Shown piece by piece: positions 203 to 10,435 of a stretch of 11,223 nucleotides of DNA. The translations under genes and the position numbers were made by a program. The DNA is from Candidatus Aenigmatarchaeota archaeon. Lineage in GTDB: Archaea; Aenigmatarchaeota; Aenigmatarchaeia; CG10238-14; SCSR01. Where the stretch lies: assembly GCA_039000165.1 (NCBI GenBank), contig JAWBTW010000020.1, positions 1-11,223 of the forward strand, given 5' to 3'. The notes beneath the pieces are model-generated. The model was not told the origin of the DNA and made no database searches. It saw only the letters and a list, made by a program, of their open reading frames with translations. Position 1 is the stretch's first letter, and every line of letters starts with the position of its first letter.

Positions 203-1324
203 TCAACTCTTTCTAAAGTAATAAAGAAGCAAGAAAGAATAAACAAGGAAAATCAAGGCAGAGGAAATGAAGAGAAAAGGAAAACCGAGGAAAGAAATTA
301 GAAAACCTGAAAAGATTAGGCTTATGGTTCTTCCTGCATGAAAAGTTGTCATTAGCAATCCTATATCAGTACCGTAAGCAAAATTGTTTGTAGTAACTCT
401 TGAAAAAATTGCTTCTATTCCGCTTGTAATAATTCCGTTAGCTATGCCAAAAAGAATTAGAATTAAACCTGCCCAAAAATCTTTAAGGAAGCAAAGCAGC
501 AAAAGAAAAGCAGGGTAAAGAAATGCCCCGAATATTATCGTTTTTCTGAAGCTAAGCTTTTTGGATAAATAATGGAGAGAAATTCCGGTAATAAAAACTT
601 GAATTCCAAGAACAATTCCAATACTTTCTATTTCGTAGCTATTTTCTTTAAGGAAAAGAGGAAAAACATAATAAGCTGTTAGGCCAAGGGATAAACCAAG
701 AACAAAAAATATTACCAAAGCTTTCTTGAAAATTTCAGTTTTTTTGGTTAAATTCAAAACCTCAAAAATTTCTTTTACATTAAGTTTTCTCTTCTTCTCT
801 GGAATTTTTAGAGAAGTTGGAATCGAAAGAAAACTTACGAAAGCGCAGAAAATCAAAACATTAGAGTAAAAAAGAAAAACTATAAGAAAACCTGCTAGCA
901 AAGTGCCTAAGGCTTCTGAAATAAAGTCAAAAACCCTCATTTCTACCAAGCTTCTCCATTTTTCCTTGCTTTGCTCAAGTATAAAAGCCCTGTTAACAGC
1001 CCAGAGAGAAGCGCTGCTTGCTCCTTCTGCAATCTTTCCGAACAAAAATTCTAAGGGAGAAAAAGCAAAGTAGTAAATCAAGCTGTAAAAAACTCTTAGA
1101 ATCCCGTTTAAAAAGAAAAATATTTTTCTTCCTATAAAATCTGAAAGAATTGCAAAAGCAAACCTTGTTAGTTGGAAAATTATTGGCAAGGCTGAATAAA
1201 CTAAACCGATAGAAATTATGTCTATTCCCCTTTCAAGCATTAGCAAAGGCAAAAGAACAGTAAGGATTCCGCTAACAAAAGAGTCTACTCCTTGAATGAA
1301 AAAGGCTTTTTTGTTCTCGCTCAT
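203..1324 (-). CDS. MFS transporter (373 aa, about 12 hydrophobic segments)
   Basis: Very hydrophobic with a two-halves layout and a charged central loop (PEKKRKLNVKE). MFS motif A-like ILSDFIGRK after TM2, with a degenerate copy (LSKKLSFRK) in the second half. Start overlaps the upstream stop (ATGA, 1321-1324). Substrate unknown. Confidence 0.9.
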   Translation of the reverse strand: MSENKKAFFIQGVDSFVSGILTVLLPLLMLERGIDIISIGLVYSALPIIFQLTRFAFAILSDFIGRKIFFFLNGILRVFYSLIYYFAFSPLEFLFGKIAEGASSASLWAVNRAFILEQSKEKWRSLVEMRVFDFISEALGTLLAGFLIVFLFYSNVLIFCAFVSFLSIPTSLKIPEKKRKLNVKEIFEVLNLTKKTEIFKKALVIFFVLGLSLGLTAYYVFPLFLKENSYEIESIGIVLGIQVFITGISLHYLSKKLSFRKTIIFGAFLYPAFLLLLCFLKDFWAGLILILFGIANGIITSGIEAIFSRVTTNNFAYGTDIGLLMTTFHAGRTISLIFSGFLISFLGFPFLFISSALIFLVYSFLLLYYFRKS

Positions 1325-1817: not shown

Positions 1818-4712
1818 TCAAGAACAACAAGCATATATAGAATATTCAGCTCCTGTAGCGTCTGGAACTGAACCAAAAGGATTGGGGAAAGGATCAGCAT
1901 AATTGTGAGTGCGCCATTGACCAAAGCCTCCTCTTGGAATTGCTGTCAACATTCCACTAGTGTTAATCTTTATTGCTAAGAAATATTTTCCAGGTTGAAG
2001 CTGAGTGTCTGGAATGTCAAAAATGCACCACTCTCCAGCTTTACATTCTTGTTCACCACTTTGAATTATCAGATTGTTTGGGTTATGCTTAGTGAGATAC
2101 TGGTTTGGATTATAAATTGCGTCATAAATTGCAACCTTTGCTTTTCCTGCAGTGAACACATAAAGATAGATAGAGGAAACTGTTAATGTTTGGTTAACAT
2201 CGTAAGGTCCTGCTGTGTAGATATATGGGTTATAAGCTGTACCTTGATTCCCAGCCTCAGGATTTCCGAACAAGGGAGCAAAACCTATAAGAAATCTGTC
2301 AGTAGCTAAGTAAATCTTTTGCTCGCTTGAGTTGTAAAACCATTTATTACTTTTAACTTCTTCCAAAGAATAAACCTTTTCCAAAGCAGTTCCATTTTTT
2401 GTTACTTGCTTAGGATTTCTTCCCATGAATAAAACCTCAACAAACTGAGGGTTAAAGTTTGATTTGTTAGTATTTATTCCAAGAATTATTCTGTTTTCCT
2501 CCTTTACTAGGTAACTTATTGGTTCAGACAAATCGTAACTTAAATCCATGTTTTTAAGTTTAATGGAAAGTTGAGTTAAGTTAAACTCTATGTCATAAAT
2601 TCCCGAAGGAATGAAAAAATAGTAGTTTCCTTGAGAATCTGTTCGATTGAAAGAAATTAGGTTATCGGTTCCTTTTTCATAGATTTTGATTAAAGCTTCA
2701 ACTGGCCTATCGTTCTTGTCTTTTAATTTTCCAGAAAAAATTGACTTTGGCTTAACATGAACATACTTAAATTCTAGATGAGTTTTCCATGGTTCGTTTC
2801 CAAAATCAGCTTTTGCAGCAATCATAAACCTATTGTCAACGTTATAATTTCTCAAGTTAGATTTAACTGTAAAACTTATTTTTTTGGTTTCAGAAGGAGC
2901 TAAGTTAATAATAGCATTAGGAGCTGAGATAAATTGCCAGCCAGGAGTGTTGTTTAATAAATAAACATTAACTGGTAATGAATTAGAACCAAGGTTTGTT
3001 ACTGTTATATTCCCAGTAAAGGTATCTAGATAGTAAATTTCATCAGGAGTTTCTATGCTTAAATTAATAGGAATCCTTCCTGCTTTTACTCTTAAGTCAG
3101 AAGCTGCTGCTCCTCCTGCTATTGCGTATTCCACCCCTGAGTAAGGAGAAGTAAAACCACTTCGCCAAGTTACTCCCATTGCTCTCCAAATGTCGTGCCA
3201 AAAGATTCCAGGAATTGTACCATCTTTGTACATTTTTTCTCCACTATACATCATTCTATTATACATATCAACAGGTGCAGGGGGATTTCTATACCTTTGA
3301 TAACTACAATTTTGATAAGCATAATCTTGAACTATTTGACCAGGAACAACATTTGGAAGTTTCTCGAATGTTAATTCTTTTCCCCAAGGATCTATTACAG
3401 CATTTTCGTACCAACATCTTTTATTTTGTGAAATTCCTGAAGGTGAATAGTAGGTCATAGGAGCTATTATATCAATGCCAGCATCATTAAATACGAAAGG
3501 GTCATGACCATTACTTCTTCCCAAGTAAGAAGACCAAGTAAACATGAAAAAAGATCCTGAAAAATTTGATTCATCAACAATTCTTTTAAGACTTCTTGCA
3601 TAATTATAAGCCATCCATCTGTCCCATATTTCCTTAAGCGTGGAATTGTACTCACCACAACCAGAAGTTATTCTTTTACCAACCCACTTCATCTTTTCCT
3701 CTACTGAATAATTATCCCAATCAGAAGGAACATTTATATTCATTTTTCTTACAAACTCGTCATTCACAAGTCTTAAATCAACAGAACCTTCTGGTTCCCA
3801 GTCAAAACCTATTGTGCTAACTTTATCGTTAGTTTTAAGAATTTCTATTAGTTTTAAAGTACTTTCGATTGCTCTTTCGTCAGTCACACTAATTTCACCA
3901 GTAACATTTATTAATTGTCCATTACTACAATCGTACTTTAAACTCCAGTTGTATTCGATACCAAAATTTTGCTTAGCCAAATCAGCAGGAGCTACGTTAT
4001 AAGGCCAAAGCCAAGGAGCACAAGTAAAACCTGAATTGTTTGCTTCCTGACAGTATTCTCTAAAGTGCCAATAGGTTAGAGAACACCATGGGAATGACAT
4101 GTTTACTGGAGCGTAACGATTACAACCGCTCCAACCTGCTCTATATCCTACAGTAGGCCAGACAGAATCTGCGCCCATAAATTTAGCCCATCTATAAATG
4201 TTTAACCAACTTTTAGATTCGTTGTAAGGACCAGGAATTTGAAAAGAGGAATGAGTAGCAACATCTTCTACTTCTTCGGCCGTCATAGCTAAATAGCCAG
4301 GAGGTATAATTTCTTTTGGTTTTCTCATACTAATGTTAAAGATAGTTGAATTTGTGTAAATTGTTCCAGAAACATTGGCAGTAATGTTTAAAGTATATTC
4401 TCCCAACTCACGGTTCCAAGGAATTGGCCAATAGCCATACCAAAGGTTGTCTGAAGAATTGTAGTATAGATTTACGTTTTGTATGTTTCCTACTGTTGTT
4501 ACTAAACCTCCTGTTGAATTATAAATTCTTGCTATAAGGGCAGTAGAAGAATTTGTAATTGGGTTACCGTTTTGGGTTAGATTGACTTTAAAAGAAACTA
4601 TTTCATACCTCAAAAAAGAAGGTTTTTCTAGGATTATGGTAAAAGTAGAAGGTTGGGCACTAACAATCGGAAATATTAATAAAAAGAAAATGAGAATCAG
4701 AATTTTCTTCAT
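1818..4712 (-). CDS. Large secreted multidomain glycoprotein (964 aa), putative TIM-barrel glycoside hydrolase with Ig-like/beta-sandwich accessory domains
   Basis: Sec signal peptide MKKILILIFFLLIFPIVSA|QP. Beta-rich N-terminal domain (aa ~20-130). Trp/Tyr-rich alpha/beta core (aa ~135-545) with IGFDWE (D304/E306) and GIDIIAPMTY. CARDB/NEW3-like Ig domain (NITVTNLG..NLAPSETKKISFTV). Carboxypeptidase-regulatory-like domain (SGKLKDKNDRPV..TDSQGNYYF..PSGIYDI). C-terminal beta domains. More than 20 N-x-S/T sequons. The CDS itself is near certain; the function is inferred. Confidence 0.6.
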   Translation of the reverse strand: MKKILILIFFLLIFPIVSAQPSTFTIILEKPSFLRYEIVSFKVNLTQNGNPITNSSTALIARIYNSTGGLVTTVGNIQNVNLYYNSSDNLWYGYWPIPWNRELGEYTLNITANVSGTIYTNSTIFNISMRKPKEIIPPGYLAMTAEEVEDVATHSSFQIPGPYNESKSWLNIYRWAKFMGADSVWPTVGYRAGWSGCNRYAPVNMSFPWCSLTYWHFREYCQEANNSGFTCAPWLWPYNVAPADLAKQNFGIEYNWSLKYDCSNGQLINVTGEISVTDERAIESTLKLIEILKTNDKVSTIGFDWEPEGSVDLRLVNDEFVRKMNINVPSDWDNYSVEEKMKWVGKRITSGCGEYNSTLKEIWDRWMAYNYARSLKRIVDESNFSGSFFMFTWSSYLGRSNGHDPFVFNDAGIDIIAPMTYYSPSGISQNKRCWYENAVIDPWGKELTFEKLPNVVPGQIVQDYAYQNCSYQRYRNPPAPVDMYNRMMYSGEKMYKDGTIPGIFWHDIWRAMGVTWRSGFTSPYSGVEYAIAGGAAASDLRVKAGRIPINLSIETPDEIYYLDTFTGNITVTNLGSNSLPVNVYLLNNTPGWQFISAPNAIINLAPSETKKISFTVKSNLRNYNVDNRFMIAAKADFGNEPWKTHLEFKYVHVKPKSIFSGKLKDKNDRPVEALIKIYEKGTDNLISFNRTDSQGNYYFFIPSGIYDIEFNLTQLSIKLKNMDLSYDLSEPISYLVKEENRIILGINTNKSNFNPQFVEVLFMGRNPKQVTKNGTALEKVYSLEEVKSNKWFYNSSEQKIYLATDRFLIGFAPLFGNPEAGNQGTAYNPYIYTAGPYDVNQTLTVSSIYLYVFTAGKAKVAIYDAIYNPNQYLTKHNPNNLIIQSGEQECKAGEWCIFDIPDTQLQPGKYFLAIKINTSGMLTAIPRGGFGQWRTHNYADPFPNPFGSVPDATGAEYSIYACCS

Positions 4713-4732
4713 AATTTAAATTTGAGTTTTTA

Positions 4733-5291
4733 TTAGCTTAACTTTTTCATCATCCAAATGTCGTCAACATACTTTCCTTTGTAAATAAAGATTTTTGGGA
4801 TTCTTGCTACTTGCTTAAAACCAAATTTTTTGTAAAGTTTTATAGCAACTTTATTGTTAGCCATAACCCCAAGTAAAAGGTATTTGAACCCCTAGCCTTT
4901 TCCCAAAATTTATCAGAAGGGAAAGCAACCTTTTTCCTATTCCTAAATTTCTGTAAGTTTTAAGGACTGCTAACCTTATTTCACCAACATGCGGGCTCCT
5001 TTCCCCATTCCCTACTTCAACGCTTCCATGAGCTACAATTTTGTTTTTGTACAAGCCTACAAGCCAGATTCCTTTTCCTTTTTTCATCAAGCTTAAAACG
5101 TTCTTTAAGTATTCTTTTTCTTCTTTTATAGTCTTTCTCTTTGCTATTAGAATAAAAGTATCTTCTTTCACTAAAGCGTTAATGAAGTTAAGCAATTGAA
5201 ATAAATCAGAATTTTTTGGAGTGCGAAAAATTATTTTTTTGCCGTCTTTTGCTTTGAATTCTTCTATTAATTGACCTGGCTTGATTTTCAT
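4733..5291 (-). pseudogene. GNAT-family N-acetyltransferase (RimJ/RimL/YhhY-like), 185 aa when repaired, interrupted by a +1 frameshift at a G4 run (4889-4892)
   Basis: ORF 4857..5291 carries acetyl-CoA motif A (VLKTYRNLGIGKRL) but ends in an atypical VQIPFTWGYG. Removing one G from CTA GGG G TTC continues as FKYLLLGVMANNKVAIKLYKKFGFKQVARIPKIFIYKGKYVDDIWMMKKLS, stop at 4733-4735, which supplies motif B (NxxAxxLYxKxGF) and the usual G.Y.D..M tail. This could be a real lesion or a sequencing error. Confidence 0.85.
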
Positions 5292-5324
5292 ATAATTAAT
5301 TTAAACAACAAAATAATTTATATG
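5289..5324. promoter_or_regulatory. Compact divergent promoter region between the GNAT and HPF-like genes
   Basis: Only 30 nt separate the two start codons (5291 on -, 5322 on +). TATA-like TATAATTA (5291-5298, +) and TATAAATT (5322-5315, -) each lie 24-31 nt upstream of the ATG they face, consistent with leaderless archaeal transcripts. Confidence 0.5.
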
Positions 5325-5666
5325 GCAACAGTTGAAATTTCTCACGCTATCCTGCCAGAAAAGCTTGAGATTCAGGAAGAAGTTAAAAAGTTTTTGGAAA
5401 AATTTGAAGAAAGATGGAAAATCTCTAGCTTCAAGCTTGATGTTAGAACTTACAGCCCAGGAGGAAGAAAGAAGTATTCATTTCATGCAAAAGTTGTTGC
5501 TAGCGACAAAATTTTTATAGCAAAGGCAAGCTCCTGGGATATCCCTTCAACATTAAGCATTCTTTTAAAAAAGTTGGAAAGGGAAATAGGAAAAAAATTG
5601 AAGAAAGAAAGGCTGAAGAAAATTTCCACTGCAAGGAAAATTTTGATGAAATCCCTAGAGGCTTAA
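5322..5666 (+). CDS. Stand-alone HPF/RaiA-fold (ribosome hibernation factor-like) protein, 114 aa
   Basis: Start reassigned from TTG 5271, which overlaps the GNAT start, to ATG 5322. MATVEISHA..EIQEEVKKFLEKFEE..SFKLDVRTY..GRKKYSFHAKV..IFIAKASSWDIPSTLSILLKKLEREIGKKLKKE follows the beta-alpha-beta-beta-beta-alpha HPF order. The A.a.xxD....l..KLE.+i.K pattern parallels HPF (A.a...DmyaAid...dKLerQl.k). Confidence 0.7.
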   Translation: MATVEISHAILPEKLEIQEEVKKFLEKFEERWKISSFKLDVRTYSPGGRKKYSFHAKVVASDKIFIAKASSWDIPSTLSILLKKLEREIGKKLKKERLKKISTARKILMKSLEA

Positions 5667-6395
5667 TTCCTTAATTCTTCCGAAGTTTAAAGCTCCTGTC
5701 TCTTTATCTAAAGCTATAGCTGAAAGGTTTTCAAAATCAACATCTTCTCTTAAAATTGGTGAAAGCAATTCCTCTTTTGAAATTGCGTTTATTTCAACCC
5801 CAGAAGCTAAGGGAGAAAAAGCAGGCAAGCAAATGAAATTTTTTCCCTTTTTTGTTTTTCCATAAAGCAAGCAAGGAACTTTTATTCTATCAAAACCTTT
5901 CCTCAAAATTAAAGCAGGCTGCTCATGACCAATAATCAAAACTTCCATTTCTTTAGGAAAATCTATTTTTTTATGCCCATGAGCAAACAAAATTCCTTGG
6001 GAAAAGTAAAAAGGTTGAAAAACTTTTAGCTCAAGCTTGCTCGCTATGGTAAGCAAATAGTTGTCATGATTTCCTCTTACCAAAACTATTTCCTCAACTT
6101 TTTTTCTCAAGAAATTTACCAAATCCTTTACTTCCCTCCATTCTTGTTGTGAAGCTTCTCCAAACTCATGCTTTAGATCGCCATTTATTATTACCTTTTT
6201 AGCTTTTGTTTCTCTTAGAATTTCTTTCAAATCAGCTTTCATTTCTTTTAGCTGGAATTGAGGAACAAAGATTCCCTGCTCAGCCAAATAAAGCTCTTCT
6301 CCTAGTTGTAAATCAGAAATAGCTATAGCTTTAAGCTTTTCTATATAAATTGCTCTAAACCCATTTACAGTGAAAATTCCTTCAAAAATTTCCAT
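5655..6395 (-). CDS. Calcineurin-like metallophosphoesterase (Lhr-associated MPE, COG1407-type) with variant metal site
   Basis: Motifs ISDLQLG, INGDLKHEF, VRGNHD, FAHGH, IGHEQP and LPAFSPL, plus co-location with lhr, a known pairing. The 3' end overlaps the convergent HPF-like gene by 12 nt. Confidence 0.9.
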   Translation of the reverse strand: MEIFEGIFTVNGFRAIYIEKLKAIAISDLQLGEELYLAEQGIFVPQFQLKEMKADLKEILRETKAKKVIINGDLKHEFGEASQQEWREVKDLVNFLRKKVEEIVLVRGNHDNYLLTIASKLELKVFQPFYFSQGILFAHGHKKIDFPKEMEVLIIGHEQPALILRKGFDRIKVPCLLYGKTKKGKNFICLPAFSPLASGVEINAISKEELLSPILREDVDFENLSAIALDKETGALNFGRIKELSL

Positions 6396-6396
6396 C

Positions 6397-6564
6397 TTAT
6401 CTTTCCTCTAAATAAATCACAGCATCTTTATGAATGTACTTAATTTTTCCTTTAGTTTCTAGAGCTATCCACTTATCAACTTCTTTCAAAATTCCTTCTA
6501 GAGGAATTGTTGTGTCACCCATCGCTATTATTATTCTGACTTTTTTGCCAATTAGCTCTTTCAT
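6397..6564 (-). CDS. Small Sm/Lsm/Hfq-fold-like protein (55 aa), missing from the ORF track
   Basis: MKELIGKKVRIIIAMGDTTIPLEGILKEVDKWIALETKGKIKYIHKDAVIYLEER, ATG at 6564, TAA at 6399-6397. It fills the lhr-MPE gap, starting 5 nt after the lhr stop and ending 1 nt before the MPE ATG. An in-frame GTG at 6573 overlaps the lhr stop. Sm1-like LIGKKVRI...G.L..VD and Sm2/Hfq-like YIHKDAVIYLE. The CDS is more certain than the fold. Confidence 0.8.
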   Translation of the reverse strand: MKELIGKKVRIIIAMGDTTIPLEGILKEVDKWIALETKGKIKYIHKDAVIYLEER

Positions 6565-6569
6565 TCCAC

Positions 6570-9278
6570 TCACTCTAAACTTTTAACCTTTTCCATAACT
6601 TTTTTGTGTAGCTCCAATAATAATTTTTTCCTGTCTTCCATTAAAACTACGTCGCTTTCACCAAGAGCTATTAGTGAATGAGAGAAAGGACTTGGAACAT
6701 TACTTTCAGGTAAAAATTCATACTTTATTCTTCCTTTTTCCACTTGCTCCAAAACCCATTTTGCATGCTCTAAATCCATAAAATCTTGCATTACTTCACG
6801 ATAAGTTTCTTCCACAACAGGAAAATTTTCAAATTTCTCGCAAACTCTTAGCAAGCGATCAGCATTCATTTGTTGCCTAGCAACTTTAATCTCATAACCT
6901 TTATAATTTCTCAGAATCATCAAGCTTCGAGTAGCACAATGCCTGAAACGCCTTTTTATCAGCTCTGTTTGTCTTAAAGCTTTTCTCAAAACTTCTTCAA
7001 GCTCAGAAGATTTTAACAGCTTAACTAACTCCTTAGGATTAACCCTTTCTTCCTCTCTTCTCTTTATTTTTGCTTTTAAAGTTATCAAATCGAGCCACTC
7101 GCTTCCTATGCTTTCTGAAGGAATAGAAATAACAAAACCGTTATCGCTAACCGTTAAGCCTACAGATTTTTTAATCTTTTTTGTTAGCAAATAGCCAAAT
7201 GCTCGAGATAAAGCGTCGTTTATTCTTCTTCCGAACAAAGTGTGAAAAATTATGTTTTGGTTTCCTTTTTCATCGATATAATTTTCGATTAAAATTGTTT
7301 TTTCGTCAGGAAAATTCTTTGCTCCTAGCGATTTAAGGAATTTGTATTCCCAGAGAAAGTATTCATAAATTGAATTTGCACTCCACTCGTCAAGATAATA
7401 ATTTTTTAATAGCCATTTTACTACTTCTTCCTTGCTTTTGTTTTTTACTAGCTTGAACATTTTTCCTCTAAACTCTTGAATTTTTAGAGCAAGCTCAAAG
7501 CTTAGAGGAAGCATTTCTGAAAACCAGGCAGGAACTGTAGGTCTTTTTTCTTTTACTGGTTTAACAAAAGCAGTCACTTGCTTTGCTTTAATAAATTCAT
7601 AAGTTTTTCCTGCTAAAACAAAAATATCTCCTGGCAAAAGCCTTTGCAAGAATTCTTCCTCTATTGAACCAATATATCTTCCATCCAAACTTCTAACTTT
7701 TATTTTCACTTCATCTGGTATTGTTCCTATATTTAAAGAGTAAATTACCCTTGCATATTTTCCTCTTCTCCCGAACATCATATCTTTAGGATCAAACCAG
7801 ATTTTTGCATAAACTTTTTTATCTTCTAGAGTATGGTAAGCTCCTGCTAAAAATTCTAAAACAGAAAGAAAATCCTCCCATTTCAAGTTTCTGTAGCAAT
7901 AAGAGTTTCTTATAAGGTTAAAAGCTTCCTTTACATTCCATTTCTTTTCCAAACTCATTCCCATCAAGTGCTGAGCTAAAACGTCAAGACAATTTTCTGG
8001 GATTTGGATTTTGTCTAAGAAGTAGCGATAAGCTTGCTGAATCATTACTGCACATTCTACCAGATCATCCCTATCCATGCAAATTATTCTTCCTTTTGAA
8101 ACTTCGTGCAAGCGATGGCCTGCCCTTCCTATTCTTTGAATGCATCTTGTAATGCTTTTTGGGCTTCCAAGCTGGCAAACTAAATCTATGTAACCTATAT
8201 CTATCCCTAATTCAAGACTTGTGCTTGAAACCACAACTTTTAACTTTCCGTTCTTAAGTTTATCCTCTATTTCTAGCCTTATTTCACGAGAAACTGAGCT
8301 GTGATGGGCTCCTATTTGCTCGTCTGTATAGACTTCTGGAAACATTTGCTTTAAGTGATGCACGCATCTTTCAGTTCCGCTTCTTGTATTTGTGAAAACT
8401 AGGGTAGTGCGATGCTGTTGAATTAACTTATCTAAAAGCTTGTACATGCTATTCGTTATGGTTTCAGCTTGTGTGTAAACTAAGTCTTTTACTGGAGAAA
8501 GAAGTTTTATGTCTAAAGGTTTAACAAATCTTGCGTCTATTATTTTACAATTTCTCTCTTTTCCGTTTTCATAACCAACTAAAAACTTTGCAACTTCAAT
8601 CAAAGGTTCGAGCGTAGCTCCCATACCTATTCTTACAAAGGGCTTTCCAACAAAATTTTGAAGTCTTTCTAAGCTTAAGCTTAAATGTACTCCACGCTTA
8701 GAATTAGCTAATTCATGAATCTCATCAACTATAACCCATCTTACTTTTTTAAATTTTTCTTTAAACTTTCTTGTCGACAAAACTATTGCTATGGTTTCAG
8801 GCGTAGTTACGAGAATGTGAGGCGGAAGCCTAAGCTGCTTTTGCTTTTCATGAGGCGAAACATCTCCCGTTCTTACTGCAATCCTAACTTCAGGTAATTC
8901 TATTCCCATTTCTTTTGCTATTTCTCTTATTTCTTTCAAAGGAATTATTAGGTTTTTGAGTATGTCGTTATCTAAAGCTCTGAGGGGAGAAATGTAAACA
9001 CAATAAACAACATCTTCTAATTCCTTCTTTTCTCCAAGGATAAAAAGCTCATCAATTATCGCCAAAAAAGAGCTTAAAGTTTTGCCTATTCCTGTTGGGG
9101 CAGTAATCAAAACATTTTCTCCTTTTTTTATTAAAGGGATGGAAAACTTTTGTGGCAAGGTTAATTGCTTAAAATTTCTTTTAAACCATTCTCTAACATA
9201 AGGTCTAAGTAAAGCTAAAACTTTCTCATCTTTCGGCAATTTTTTCGTGTTAACAAAGCCTATCATGGAAACGCGCAT
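6570..9278 (-). CDS. lhr: ATP-dependent SF2 helicase Lhr (archaeal Lhr2/Lhr-core type), about 900 aa
   Basis: Q motif LTLPQ, Walker A APTGIGKT, YISPLRAL, VRTGD, ILVTTPE, DEIH, FTNTRS, AHHSS, STSLELGIDIG, QRIGRAGH, winged-helix LDVLAQH, NIGTIPDE, P.WFSE, RRFRHCA.RSLMILRNY and C-terminal PSPFSH. Alternative start at ATG 9266. No intein-sized insertion. Confidence 0.96.
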   Translation of the reverse strand: MRVSMIGFVNTKKLPKDEKVLALLRPYVREWFKRNFKQLTLPQKFSIPLIKKGENVLITAPTGIGKTLSSFLAIIDELFILGEKKELEDVVYCVYISPLRALDNDILKNLIIPLKEIREIAKEMGIELPEVRIAVRTGDVSPHEKQKQLRLPPHILVTTPETIAIVLSTRKFKEKFKKVRWVIVDEIHELANSKRGVHLSLSLERLQNFVGKPFVRIGMGATLEPLIEVAKFLVGYENGKERNCKIIDARFVKPLDIKLLSPVKDLVYTQAETITNSMYKLLDKLIQQHRTTLVFTNTRSGTERCVHHLKQMFPEVYTDEQIGAHHSSVSREIRLEIEDKLKNGKLKVVVSSTSLELGIDIGYIDLVCQLGSPKSITRCIQRIGRAGHRLHEVSKGRIICMDRDDLVECAVMIQQAYRYFLDKIQIPENCLDVLAQHLMGMSLEKKWNVKEAFNLIRNSYCYRNLKWEDFLSVLEFLAGAYHTLEDKKVYAKIWFDPKDMMFGRRGKYARVIYSLNIGTIPDEVKIKVRSLDGRYIGSIEEEFLQRLLPGDIFVLAGKTYEFIKAKQVTAFVKPVKEKRPTVPAWFSEMLPLSFELALKIQEFRGKMFKLVKNKSKEEVVKWLLKNYYLDEWSANSIYEYFLWEYKFLKSLGAKNFPDEKTILIENYIDEKGNQNIIFHTLFGRRINDALSRAFGYLLTKKIKKSVGLTVSDNGFVISIPSESIGSEWLDLITLKAKIKRREEERVNPKELVKLLKSSELEEVLRKALRQTELIKRRFRHCATRSLMILRNYKGYEIKVARQQMNADRLLRVCEKFENFPVVEETYREVMQDFMDLEHAKWVLEQVEKGRIKYEFLPESNVPSPFSHSLIALGESDVVLMEDRKKLLLELHKKVMEKVKSLE

Positions 9279-9328
9279 ATTATATGAGAAAAAGAAAAGA
9301 TAAAGTTTACTGTTTTCTTATAGTAATC
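9279..9328. promoter_or_regulatory. Divergent promoter region between lhr and the radical SAM operon
   Basis: About 50-60 nt between divergent starts. It contains the imperfect palindrome AAGAAAA-GA-TAAA-G-TTTA-CTG-TTTTCTT (9292-9319), with BRE-like AGAAAA followed by an AT-rich box on each strand. Confidence 0.45.
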
Positions 9329-10435
9329 ATGGGAGTTTGTAAAATTTGCAAGAAAGAGTCTGAACTAATTTCTTCTTTTTTAGGGCTTTGTAGAGAGTGC
9401 ATTCTTGGAGAAAAGGAAAAGGCAATAGAAATTGCTAAAAAAGCGCATGAAATTTCCAGAAAAAAATTTGGCTTAACTCCTTTTGTTCCTAAAGGCCCTG
9501 GATTGCAATGCTTTGGTTGTGGGAATGAATGCAAAATTTCTGAAGGAAGCAAAGGGTATTGTGGCTTGGTTGAGAATAAGAACGGCAAGCTAATAAGGTA
9601 TGCAGGCGATGCTGAAAAAGGTTTGTTAGAATGGTATTATGATGCTTTACCAACAAATTGCGTAAGCATAAACTTTTGTCCTGGAGGTACTGGAATAGGT
9701 TATCCAAAATATGCTAAGTGTAAAAGTGCGGAAATAGGTTATTATAATCTTGCGGTTTTTTATGGAGCTTGTAACTTTAATTGCTTGTTCTGCCAAAACT
9801 GGCATTTCAAGCATTTAACTCAGGAATTAAAGCCATTAGTTTCTGCAAAAGAGCTTGCAAGTAAGGTTAACGAAAAGGTTAATTGCATTTGTTACTTTGG
9901 AGGAACTCCTGAACCTCAGTTAATTCATGCAATAGAAACTTCTAAGCTTGCTTTAGAAAAAAAGAAAAACGATATTTTAAGAATTTGTTTGGAATCTAAC
10001 GGAAACGCTAATTGGAAATTGCTAAAAAAATTTGCTAAGATTTCTTTTGAAACAGGAGGGAACATAAAGTTTGACTTAAAGTTCCCTAAAGAATCAGCTT
10101 TAAACTTTGCTCTTTGCGGCATAGACAATAAAAAAACTTACGAGAATTTTAAGAAATTGGCAAAATTTCACAAGAAGAGGGAAATTCCTTTTTTAACAGC
10201 AAGCACTTTGCTTGTTCCAGGATATGTTACAGAAAAAGAAATAAGGGAAATTGCAAGCTTTATTTCAAGCTTGGACAAAAGCATTCCTTATTCTTTGCTT
10301 GCCTTTTATCCTTATTTCATGCTAAAGGATTTACCCTTAACTTCAAGAAAATTAGCTGAGAATTGCTTAAAAGTTGCAAAGGAAGAAGGTTTGGAAAATG
10401 TAAGAATTGGGAACGAGCATTTGCTTGTGGATTAG
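9329..10435 (+). CDS. Radical SAM protein, PflA/COG1180-like archaeal family with a Cys-rich N-terminus (368 aa)
   Basis: CxxxCxxC motif GACNFNCLFCQNW, FGGTPEP (GGEP-like), ESNG, KFDLK, STLLVPGY and LLAFYP. Extra N-terminal CKIC, CREC, CFGCGNEC and GYCG. Start moved from 9284 to ATG 9329 (MGVCKIC) to leave room for the divergent promoter. Confidence 0.9.
   Translation: MGVCKICKKESELISSFLGLCRECILGEKEKAIEIAKKAHEISRKKFGLTPFVPKGPGLQCFGCGNECKISEGSKGYCGLVENKNGKLIRYAGDAEKGLLEWYYDALPTNCVSINFCPGGTGIGYPKYAKCKSAEIGYYNLAVFYGACNFNCLFCQNWHFKHLTQELKPLVSAKELASKVNEKVNCICYFGGTPEPQLIHAIETSKLALEKKKNDILRICLESNGNANWKLLKKFAKISFETGGNIKFDLKFPKESALNFALCGIDNKKTYENFKKLAKFHKKREIPFLTASTLLVPGYVTEKEIREIASFISSLDKSIPYSLLAFYPYFMLKDLPLTSRKLAENCLKVAKEEGLENVRIGNEHLLVD

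Follow-up and report, generated by a model that had tools for sequence, protein, structure and literature searches.

A small Sm-fold protein with predicted Hfq-like geometry encoded between the lhr and MPE genes of Aenigmatarchaeota

The window, which is the whole 11,223-nucleotide stretch of DNA analysed here (G+C content 33.6%), carries a 55-residue gene at 6397..6564 of the minus strand, wedged between the genes for an Lhr-type (aLhr2-like) SF2 helicase and an MPE-type binuclear metallophosphoesterase. Based on its ORF, a family of 54 clusters, dN/dS ratios, AlphaFold2 models and Foldseek matches, it is described as a small Sm-fold (Hfq-like) β-barrel gene. At a probability of about 0.5, we read its product as an lhr-MPE-linked accessory nucleic-acid binder with an Sm fold and Hfq-like geometry, whose function would extend beyond Lhr and MPE.

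Results and discussion

The small ORF is a genuine gene

On the minus strand of the window, the 902-aa lhr gene (6570..9278) ends with the TGA stop codon at 6572..6570, and the 246-aa MPE gene (5655..6395) starts with the ATG at 6395..6393, which leaves a gap of 174 nt (6396..6569). The small ORF runs from an ATG at 6564 to a TAA stop codon at 6399..6397 and occupies 168 nt of this gap, with spacers of 5 nt after the lhr stop and 1 nt before the MPE ATG. The initial annotation had described a hidden 55-aa gene filling the gap, and this description is correct; the strings that it had quoted from the translation (LIGKKVRIII, G.L.EVD.WI.LE and KYIHKDAVIYLE) are all present. The product has a mass of 6.35 kDa and a pI of about 9, which is not strikingly basic compared to that of Lhr (pI 9.4), and one relative, P0017, is acidic (pI 4.9).

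An alternative GTG start at 6573 overlaps the lhr stop codon and would yield a protein of 58 aa. The ATG start is favoured because its Met is the first residue of the window protein and of 12 of the 13 relatives aligned with it (13 of 14 sequences) and because a purine-rich stretch precedes the start position, which is ATG or GTG, in the related loci. A clear GGAGG or GGTGG core lies before the start of the small gene in L001, L004, L005 and L006. In the window, the purine-rich stretch is found at 6565..6575 of the minus strand, directly 5' of the ATG and spanning the lhr stop, and it may serve as the ribosome-binding site.

As judged from the pattern of substitutions, the small ORF is a genuine protein-coding gene under purifying selection. 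The sense frame contains no internal stop in any of seven copies (the window and six related loci), whereas each of the five other frames has at least one stop in all seven. The Nei-Gojobori dN/dS ratio was computable for 17 of the 21 pairs (window and six loci, all against all; dS was saturated in the other four) and ranged from 0.024 to 0.207. The idea that there is no gene here, and that the frame is open by chance in an intergenic spacer, draws on the shortness of the ORF, which lies under the usual annotation cut-offs. It is almost certainly wrong, given these ratios with synonymous sites near saturation, the closure of all other frames, the confident folding of the model (pLDDT 96.1), and codon positions 1, 2 and 3 of the L005 and L006 copies, which are 89%, 91% and 56% identical, respectively. 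The gene that the initial annotation had proposed is thus borne out and is conserved, as is also seen from the family of 54 clusters.

A narrow archaeal family on the edge of DUF6897

A word-indexed search returned 13 relatives with 65-98% identity, and a profile search returned 54 clusters, all at E <= 1e-8; Candidatus Aenigmatarchaeota is the organism of all seven rows bearing an NCBI name. In a HMMER search of 1.84 billion cluster representatives (one per 50%-identity cluster), eight representatives were found at E <= 1e-3, of which six (P0015-P0019 and P0021) were accepted as true relatives. The other two, P0020 (322 aa) and P0022 (195 aa), are repeat-rich with partial, multi-stretch matches and were rejected. 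On the evidence of these searches, the small family is restricted to Aenigmatarchaeota (DPANN archaea) and lies on the edge of Pfam DUF6897.

The family falls into two subgroups, one with proteins of 55-58 aa and the other with proteins of 62-77 aa that bear a Lys-rich N-terminal tail. In the alignment of 54 sequences, from which P0003 was excluded because its 58-aa form is called from a GTG start, the residues Gly16, Gly24, Trp32 and Glu53 are invariant (54/54), and Gly6, Lys7, Val9, Arg10, Lys42 and Glu54 are conserved in at least 90% of the sequences.

The closest sequence family of the window protein is DUF6897 (PF21838, the 'MM0924 family'), with 22.7 bits and an E value of 7.8e-5, just under the cut-off of 23.9 bits, which is passed by the relatives P0009 (29.0 bits) and P0015 (27.0 bits). 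At E <= 0.01, 24 of the 54 members match DUF6897 and six match Hfq, the best Hfq match among them having an E value of 3.5e-4. In a protein language-model atlas, the nearest clusters are likewise DUF6897, at 0.92 and 0.91, the former being 95% DUF6897; with DUF6897 excluded, DUF2642 and Hfq clusters follow at 0.84-0.87 and are leads only. In the reverse direction, the profile of the small family found no core DUF6897 protein at E <= 1e-3 among the 1.84 billion representatives, and the small family therefore appears to be a separate, distant branch. DUF6897 is itself a family of no known function, and a full-text literature search found no paper on DUF6897 or the MM0924 family.

The window protein did not reach the curated threshold of any RNA- or DNA-binding family. 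It scored 13.5 bits against Hfq PF17209 (cut-off 27), 13.1 bits against Hfq TIGR02383 (cut-off 61.7) and 12.7 bits against LSM PF01423 (cut-off 23.4), the last over residues 1-33 only. A match to the Hfq or LSM family, named as a check in the initial annotation, is thus not obtained from the sequence at the curated thresholds, and DUF6897 is closer. In profile searches against the PDB, Hfq ranked first at an E value of 0.3, a weak match, as the plainly chance hits to ribosomal protein L28, SmAP3 and HIV-2 protease in the same searches lie at 0.35-0.66. PADLOC and PHROGs did not assign the small protein to any defence or phage family, and Rfam gave no RNA family in the window.

One source offers a different identity. 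The JGI label 'RNase P/RNase MRP subunit p29' stands on 8 of the 54 clusters, and PF01868 is matched by the window protein with 14.2 bits (E 0.043) and by P0015 with 15.9 bits; this label and the label 'snRNP-like', which stands on one cluster, rest on the same weak likeness. It is very improbable that the small protein is the RNase P subunit Rpp29 (p29), since these scores lie well under the 27-bit cut-off and none of the 54 members matches PF01868 at E <= 0.01. Moreover, at 55 aa the protein is far shorter than the 84-position Pfam model and shorter still relative to full Rpp29, no Rpp29 structure occurs among the Foldseek matches listed for either model, and the operon points to DNA repair rather than to RNA processing.

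Motifs of the first and last loops

In the PDB profile alignment, Gly24, Asp30, Trp32 and Lys46 align with Gly, Asp, Tyr42 and Lys57 of Staphylococcus aureus Hfq, and Tyr42 and Lys57 presumably line the uridine pocket of Hfq. The last motif of Hfq reads Tyr-Lys-His-Ala-Ile. The corresponding motif is His-Lys-Asp-Ala-Val in the window protein and Asn-Lys-x-x-x in the family consensus, in which only the Lys aligns with Hfq, with Asn or His at the position of the Hfq Tyr and Asp at the position of the Hfq His. The initial annotation had placed this Sm2 motif nearer to that of Hfq; this holds for the retained Lys and fails for the Tyr and His.

The motifs of SmAP proteins are Asp-x-h-h-Asn (first) and Arg-Gly (second). 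The window protein reads Asp-Lys-Trp-Ile-Ala, with Ala where the Asn would stand, and it has no Arg-Gly ahead of its last strand. With these absences and the low LSM score, the protein is not a canonical SmAP, in agreement with the initial annotation, which had set it apart from the housekeeping SmAP.

Predicted fold and structural matches

AlphaFold2 gave a model with a pLDDT of 77.4 from 14 sequences and a model with a pLDDT of 96.1 and a pTM of 0.76 from the 54-row alignment. The latter consists of a three-residue N-terminal helical turn and five strands (residues 8-15, 18-29, 32-37, 40-45 and 49-54), the third and fourth of which are joined by a short loop. The five-stranded Sm fold and the short Hfq-like loop, both of which had been proposed from the sequence, are therefore reproduced in the model; the proposed short N-terminal helix is present as a helical turn, but is only about three residues long.

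Foldseek comparison with the weaker model (pLDDT 77.4) returned, among the 35 matches listed, 14 Hfq, 3 Sm/Lsm, 13 BirA/biotin ligase and 5 other structures, with a best E value of 0.088; the SH3-like C-terminal domain of BirA matched this model as well as Hfq did. With the high-confidence model, the 32 matches listed comprise 16 Hfq, 13 Sm/Lsm/SmAP and 3 other structures (GerQ filament, Mnx subunit and GatDE), and BirA is absent among them. The best match overall is the GerQ filament (E 5.5e-3, TM 0.83). Assignment to the Sm class is thus backed by 29 of the 32 listed rows, but not by any match at E <= 1e-3, which neither model gave; E values above this level are usual for a domain so short.

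The Hfq chains superpose on the model with TM scores of 0.76-0.81 and rmsd values of 1.5-2.3 Å. Among them, S. aureus Hfq has a TM score of 0.80 and an rmsd of 1.6 Å, Caulobacter Hfq has a TM score of 0.81 and an rmsd of 1.5 Å, and the Hfq-like protein of Methanococcus jannaschii (2QTX) has TM scores of 0.77 (query) and 0.76 (target) at 27% identity. The SmAP/Lsm chains have TM scores of 0.63-0.79, and most of them superpose at an rmsd of about 5 Å over longer alignments. The model thus supports an Sm-type five-stranded barrel whose shape is nearer to Hfq than to SmAP/Lsm, and the short loop that joins strands 3 and 4 is in keeping with the closer superposition on Hfq. A prediction of a four-copy complex scored 0.15; the mark of 0.42 for this score was calibrated on two copies, and the value gives no indication of self-association either way.

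The lhr-small-MPE operon

The helicase encoded upstream of the small gene matches NCBIfam NF010338 with 1263 bits and contains the Pfam domains DEAD, Helicase_C, WH_Lhr and DEAD_assoc. The protein encoded downstream matches TIGR00024 with 149.8 bits and is homologous to the Pseudomonas putida nuclease MPE (PDB 6NVO, E 5e-9). In the first metal-binding motif of the window MPE (residues 28-30), Asp-Leu-Gln stands in place of the Asp-Val-His of P. putida MPE; Asp-Leu-Gln also occurs in L003 and L005, and the window MPE keeps the GD..H and GNHD motifs.

One scan of a genome collection gave 50 pattern matches, seven of them confirmed, from which six related loci were obtained; the search patterns were drawn from the 55-58-aa subgroup, so that this sample does not cover loci of the Lys-tailed 62-77-aa subgroup. 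The order lhr-small-MPE is retained in five of the six related loci, down to 67% protein identity, two of which (L003 and L004) are short contigs that truncate lhr or MPE. The spacers at the junctions are mostly 0-5 nt or overlaps, and the junction between the small gene and MPE is 0-4 nt or an overlap in all five loci. Promoter- and terminator-like sites in 5200..9600 were no more frequent than in shuffled sequence, as scored with a bacterial consensus that is unsuited to archaea. In our reading, the ancestral place of the small gene is the middle of a tightly packed lhr-small-MPE operon, and the tight packing suggests that the small protein is as a rule co-produced with a 3'-to-5' helicase and an endonuclease for single-stranded DNA.

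Such tight coupling to both neighbours, tightest to MPE, would also be compatible with a protein-protein adaptor, that is, an SH3- or Tudor-like barrel that bridges or regulates Lhr and MPE and does not bind nucleic acid. The conserved acidic C-terminus (Glu53 and Glu54) could be its docking tip, and the equal match of the first model to BirA points in the same direction. On the other hand, BirA disappeared and only three non-Hfq/Sm/Lsm rows remained among those listed for the high-confidence model, the gene is retained at L006 in the absence of both proposed partners (see below), and no fusion with Lhr or MPE was found among 7999 longer candidates, although this last point is weak evidence. 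Taken together, an adaptor has only a small chance of being correct.

Several further features of the region were observed. At 9278-9284 of the window, only 5 nt separate the listed starts of lhr (minus strand, 9278) and of a radical-SAM gene (plus strand, 9284), too little to accommodate promoters. Both genes probably start further inside, with Met5 of Lhr and Met16 of the radical-SAM protein as candidate first residues. On the other side of the operon, a 131-aa ORF (5271-5666, plus strand) is convergent with MPE, overlaps the 3' end of MPE by 12 nt as well as the 5' end of the GNAT gene, and shows weak likeness to the ribosome hibernation factor S30AE (Pfam E 0.0099; phrog_8990 E 4.6e-5); it is conserved in L001 at 97.7%. 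The gene at 1818-4712 (minus strand) encodes a 964-aa protein whose N-terminus is hydrophobic and which has no Pfam match and only a weak match to phrog_25864 (E 1.1e-5). This gene is absent between the GNAT and bPH genes of L001 (97-98% protein identity) and thus looks like a strain-variable insertion. In L002 (6908-12165), lhr, the small gene and MPE match those of the window at 96-99% protein identity, and in the 12 kb of L002 analysed, none of the genes that follow MPE in the window (131-aa ORF, GNAT, bPH and MFS) occurs downstream of MPE; the region 3' of the operon thus differs even among closely related genomes. L003 alone has an extra 90-aa ORF (746-1018, plus strand) between lhr and the small gene, which overlaps each neighbour by 4 nt and has no Pfam, PHROG or PADLOC match.

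Retention of the small gene after decay of lhr and MPE

The loci L005 and L006 are syntenic and have the genes of both flanks in common. One flank comprises a TRAM protein, DUF72, a methylpurine glycosylase and a uracil-DNA glycosylase; the other comprises a bPH protein, a MiaB-like enzyme and two ORFs of 141 aa and 623 aa, the latter of which we take to be GatE. Between these flanks, L005 carries lhr-small-MPE, whereas L006 carries only the intact small gene. In L006, the 265-nt spacer 3' of the small gene matches the MPE gene of L005 with 75.6% identity over 168 nt (E 1e-27) and 76.8% over 69 nt (E 3e-9), and the MPE fragment is also detected by tblastn (E 2e-6). The 152-nt spacer 5' of the small gene matches lhr with 83% identity over 42 nt (E 6e-8), and a second piece matches the 5' end of lhr with 79% identity over 42 nt (E 4e-4). 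At the L006 locus, lhr and MPE have decayed while the small gene has stayed open.

The L006 copy of the small gene is preceded by GGAGG and an A+T-rich, TATA-like stretch, and its dN/dS ratio against the L005 copy is 0.085. There is no acceleration of its rate: six amino-acid changes are unique to L006 and three to L005 (chi-square 1.0), and the unique nucleotide changes number 13 and 12, respectively. A strict dependence on Lhr and MPE, with joint loss of all three genes, is contradicted at this locus, which argues that the small gene is not merely a part of Lhr-MPE and weakens the claim that its product works through them. The identity of about 76% that the MPE fragment still shows points to a recent loss, and the survival of the 168-nt ORF in L006 could for this reason partly reflect a lack of time.

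In L006, the uracil-DNA glycosylase (PF03167, 103.7 bits) and the methylpurine-DNA glycosylase (PF02245, 174.4 bits) are encoded at 4725-5848 (minus strand), and in both L005 and L006 the two genes are divergent from the lhr-small-MPE site. The wider neighbourhood is thus a DNA-repair gene cluster.

Retention at L006, with the gene's own GGAGG and TATA-like stretch, would suit a general Sm-like RNA chaperone that is specific to this lineage, as a counterpart of SmAP or Hfq or a paralogue of either, whose place in the operon reflects co-transcription only and which has no role in repair. Hfq as the nearest fold and the Lys-rich N-terminal tails of some relatives are in line with this possibility. 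However, it does not readily account for the persistence of the lhr-small-MPE order with near-zero spacers in five of six loci, for the repair genes that still neighbour the L006 copy on its other side, or for a family that is very narrow for a housekeeping factor, with six true representatives among 1.84 billion. A general chaperone is thus a somewhat unlikely explanation, and an accessory nucleic-acid binder linked to lhr and MPE is preferred.

Comparison with known systems

The window protein shares with Hfq, including 2QTX, the five-stranded Sm barrel, the short loop between strands 3 and 4 and a similarly small size, as well as the Lys of the last loop and, for the first motif, the spacing of Gly, Asp, an aromatic residue and Leu. 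It differs from Hfq in the lack of a significant match to PF17209 or TIGR02383, the N-terminal helix cut down to about three residues, and the Asn/His and Asp that replace the Hfq Tyr and His. Hfq forms a homohexameric ring, and a ring of the small protein is hypothetical. The Hfq gene usually stands alone or next to miaA, whereas the small gene sits in a helicase-nuclease operon. With SmAP and Sm/Lsm proteins (PF01423), likeness extends to the fold class, at the TM scores given above for the Foldseek matches listed; the LSM score, the poorer rmsd of most chains and the missing first-motif Asn and second-motif Arg-Gly set the window protein apart.

In the available text of PMC7826289, a two-gene Lhr-Core-MPE cluster in bacteria and archaea has already been noted, and according to that of PMC8301817, aLhr2 lies beside a TIGR00024 phosphoesterase in DPANN genomes. 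The window agrees with this cluster in its adjacent, co-oriented lhr and MPE genes and in the homology of its MPE to that of P. putida, and it differs in the third gene of 55 aa between the two. The available sections of the two papers make no mention of a third gene between lhr and MPE; as far as those of PMC8301817 go, neighbours were named there by means of TIGR profiles, which would not name the small gene. Full-text searches for Lhr with Sm-like, DPANN with Sm-like and Aenigmarchaeota (the older phylum spelling only) with Lhr found no paper describing the small gene among those listed, as judged from titles and the opening lines of abstracts.

Proposed function

Based on the results presented above, the divergent Sm-fold protein probably binds single-stranded nucleic acid. 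From the Hfq-like geometry, Trp32, the basic residues, the Lys-rich tails and the neighbouring genes, we infer nucleic-acid binding through an Hfq-like pocket, assembly into a ring and a hand-off to Lhr or MPE; the ring-forming nucleic-acid chaperone or adaptor of the initial annotation is thus a putative role. The small protein would bind RNA or ssDNA tails through the pocket that is used by Hfq, which would be centred on the invariant Trp32 together with Lys42 and Lys46 and assisted by Lys7 and Arg10, and the Lys-rich N-terminal tail of some relatives may add to the binding. Two points count against such a pocket: the N-terminal helix, which forms part of the Hfq pocket, comprises only about three residues, and the Tyr and His of the last Hfq motif are absent. 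The bound strands would be held or presented for loading of Lhr or for incision by MPE, possibly by an Hfq-like ring. The small protein would not be an obligate subunit of either enzyme and would have a function of its own besides, as lhr and MPE have decayed at the L006 locus of one lineage, which kept the small gene.

A bolder proposal, which we consider clearly unlikely, is that an Sm/Hfq-type ring has been co-opted into an archaeal machine for DNA repair, where it is the subunit that handles strands, and that it doubles as a free-standing chaperone. In that case, the ring would take hold of a 3' single-stranded tail or of the RNA in an RNA:DNA hybrid and pass this strand on to the helicase Lhr and the endonuclease MPE. 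If this were true, it would be the first Sm-fold protein dedicated to a helicase-nuclease repair pathway, and the double role as a chaperone would account for its outliving its partners in one lineage.

Significance

The Sm fold is already known, and in sequence the small family comes nearest to an uncharacterised DUF; the novelty lies in an Hfq-shaped protein encoded by the conserved middle gene of a helicase-nuclease repair operon in one DPANN lineage. The usual annotation cut-offs of 60 aa miss the small family, and one source labels it wrongly as RNase P p29. With 55 residues and a confident fold, its members are a cheap target for biochemistry. The cellular role of the Lhr helicase and the MPE nuclease is still obscure in bacteria and archaea, and a conserved third gene in their operon provides a handle on their substrate, which may be RNA, ssDNA or hybrids. 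Hfq-like proteins are rare in archaea, and with the small family an Hfq-shaped protein is now predicted for archaea whose genomes are very small. The natural deletion at L006 points to a value of the small protein by itself.
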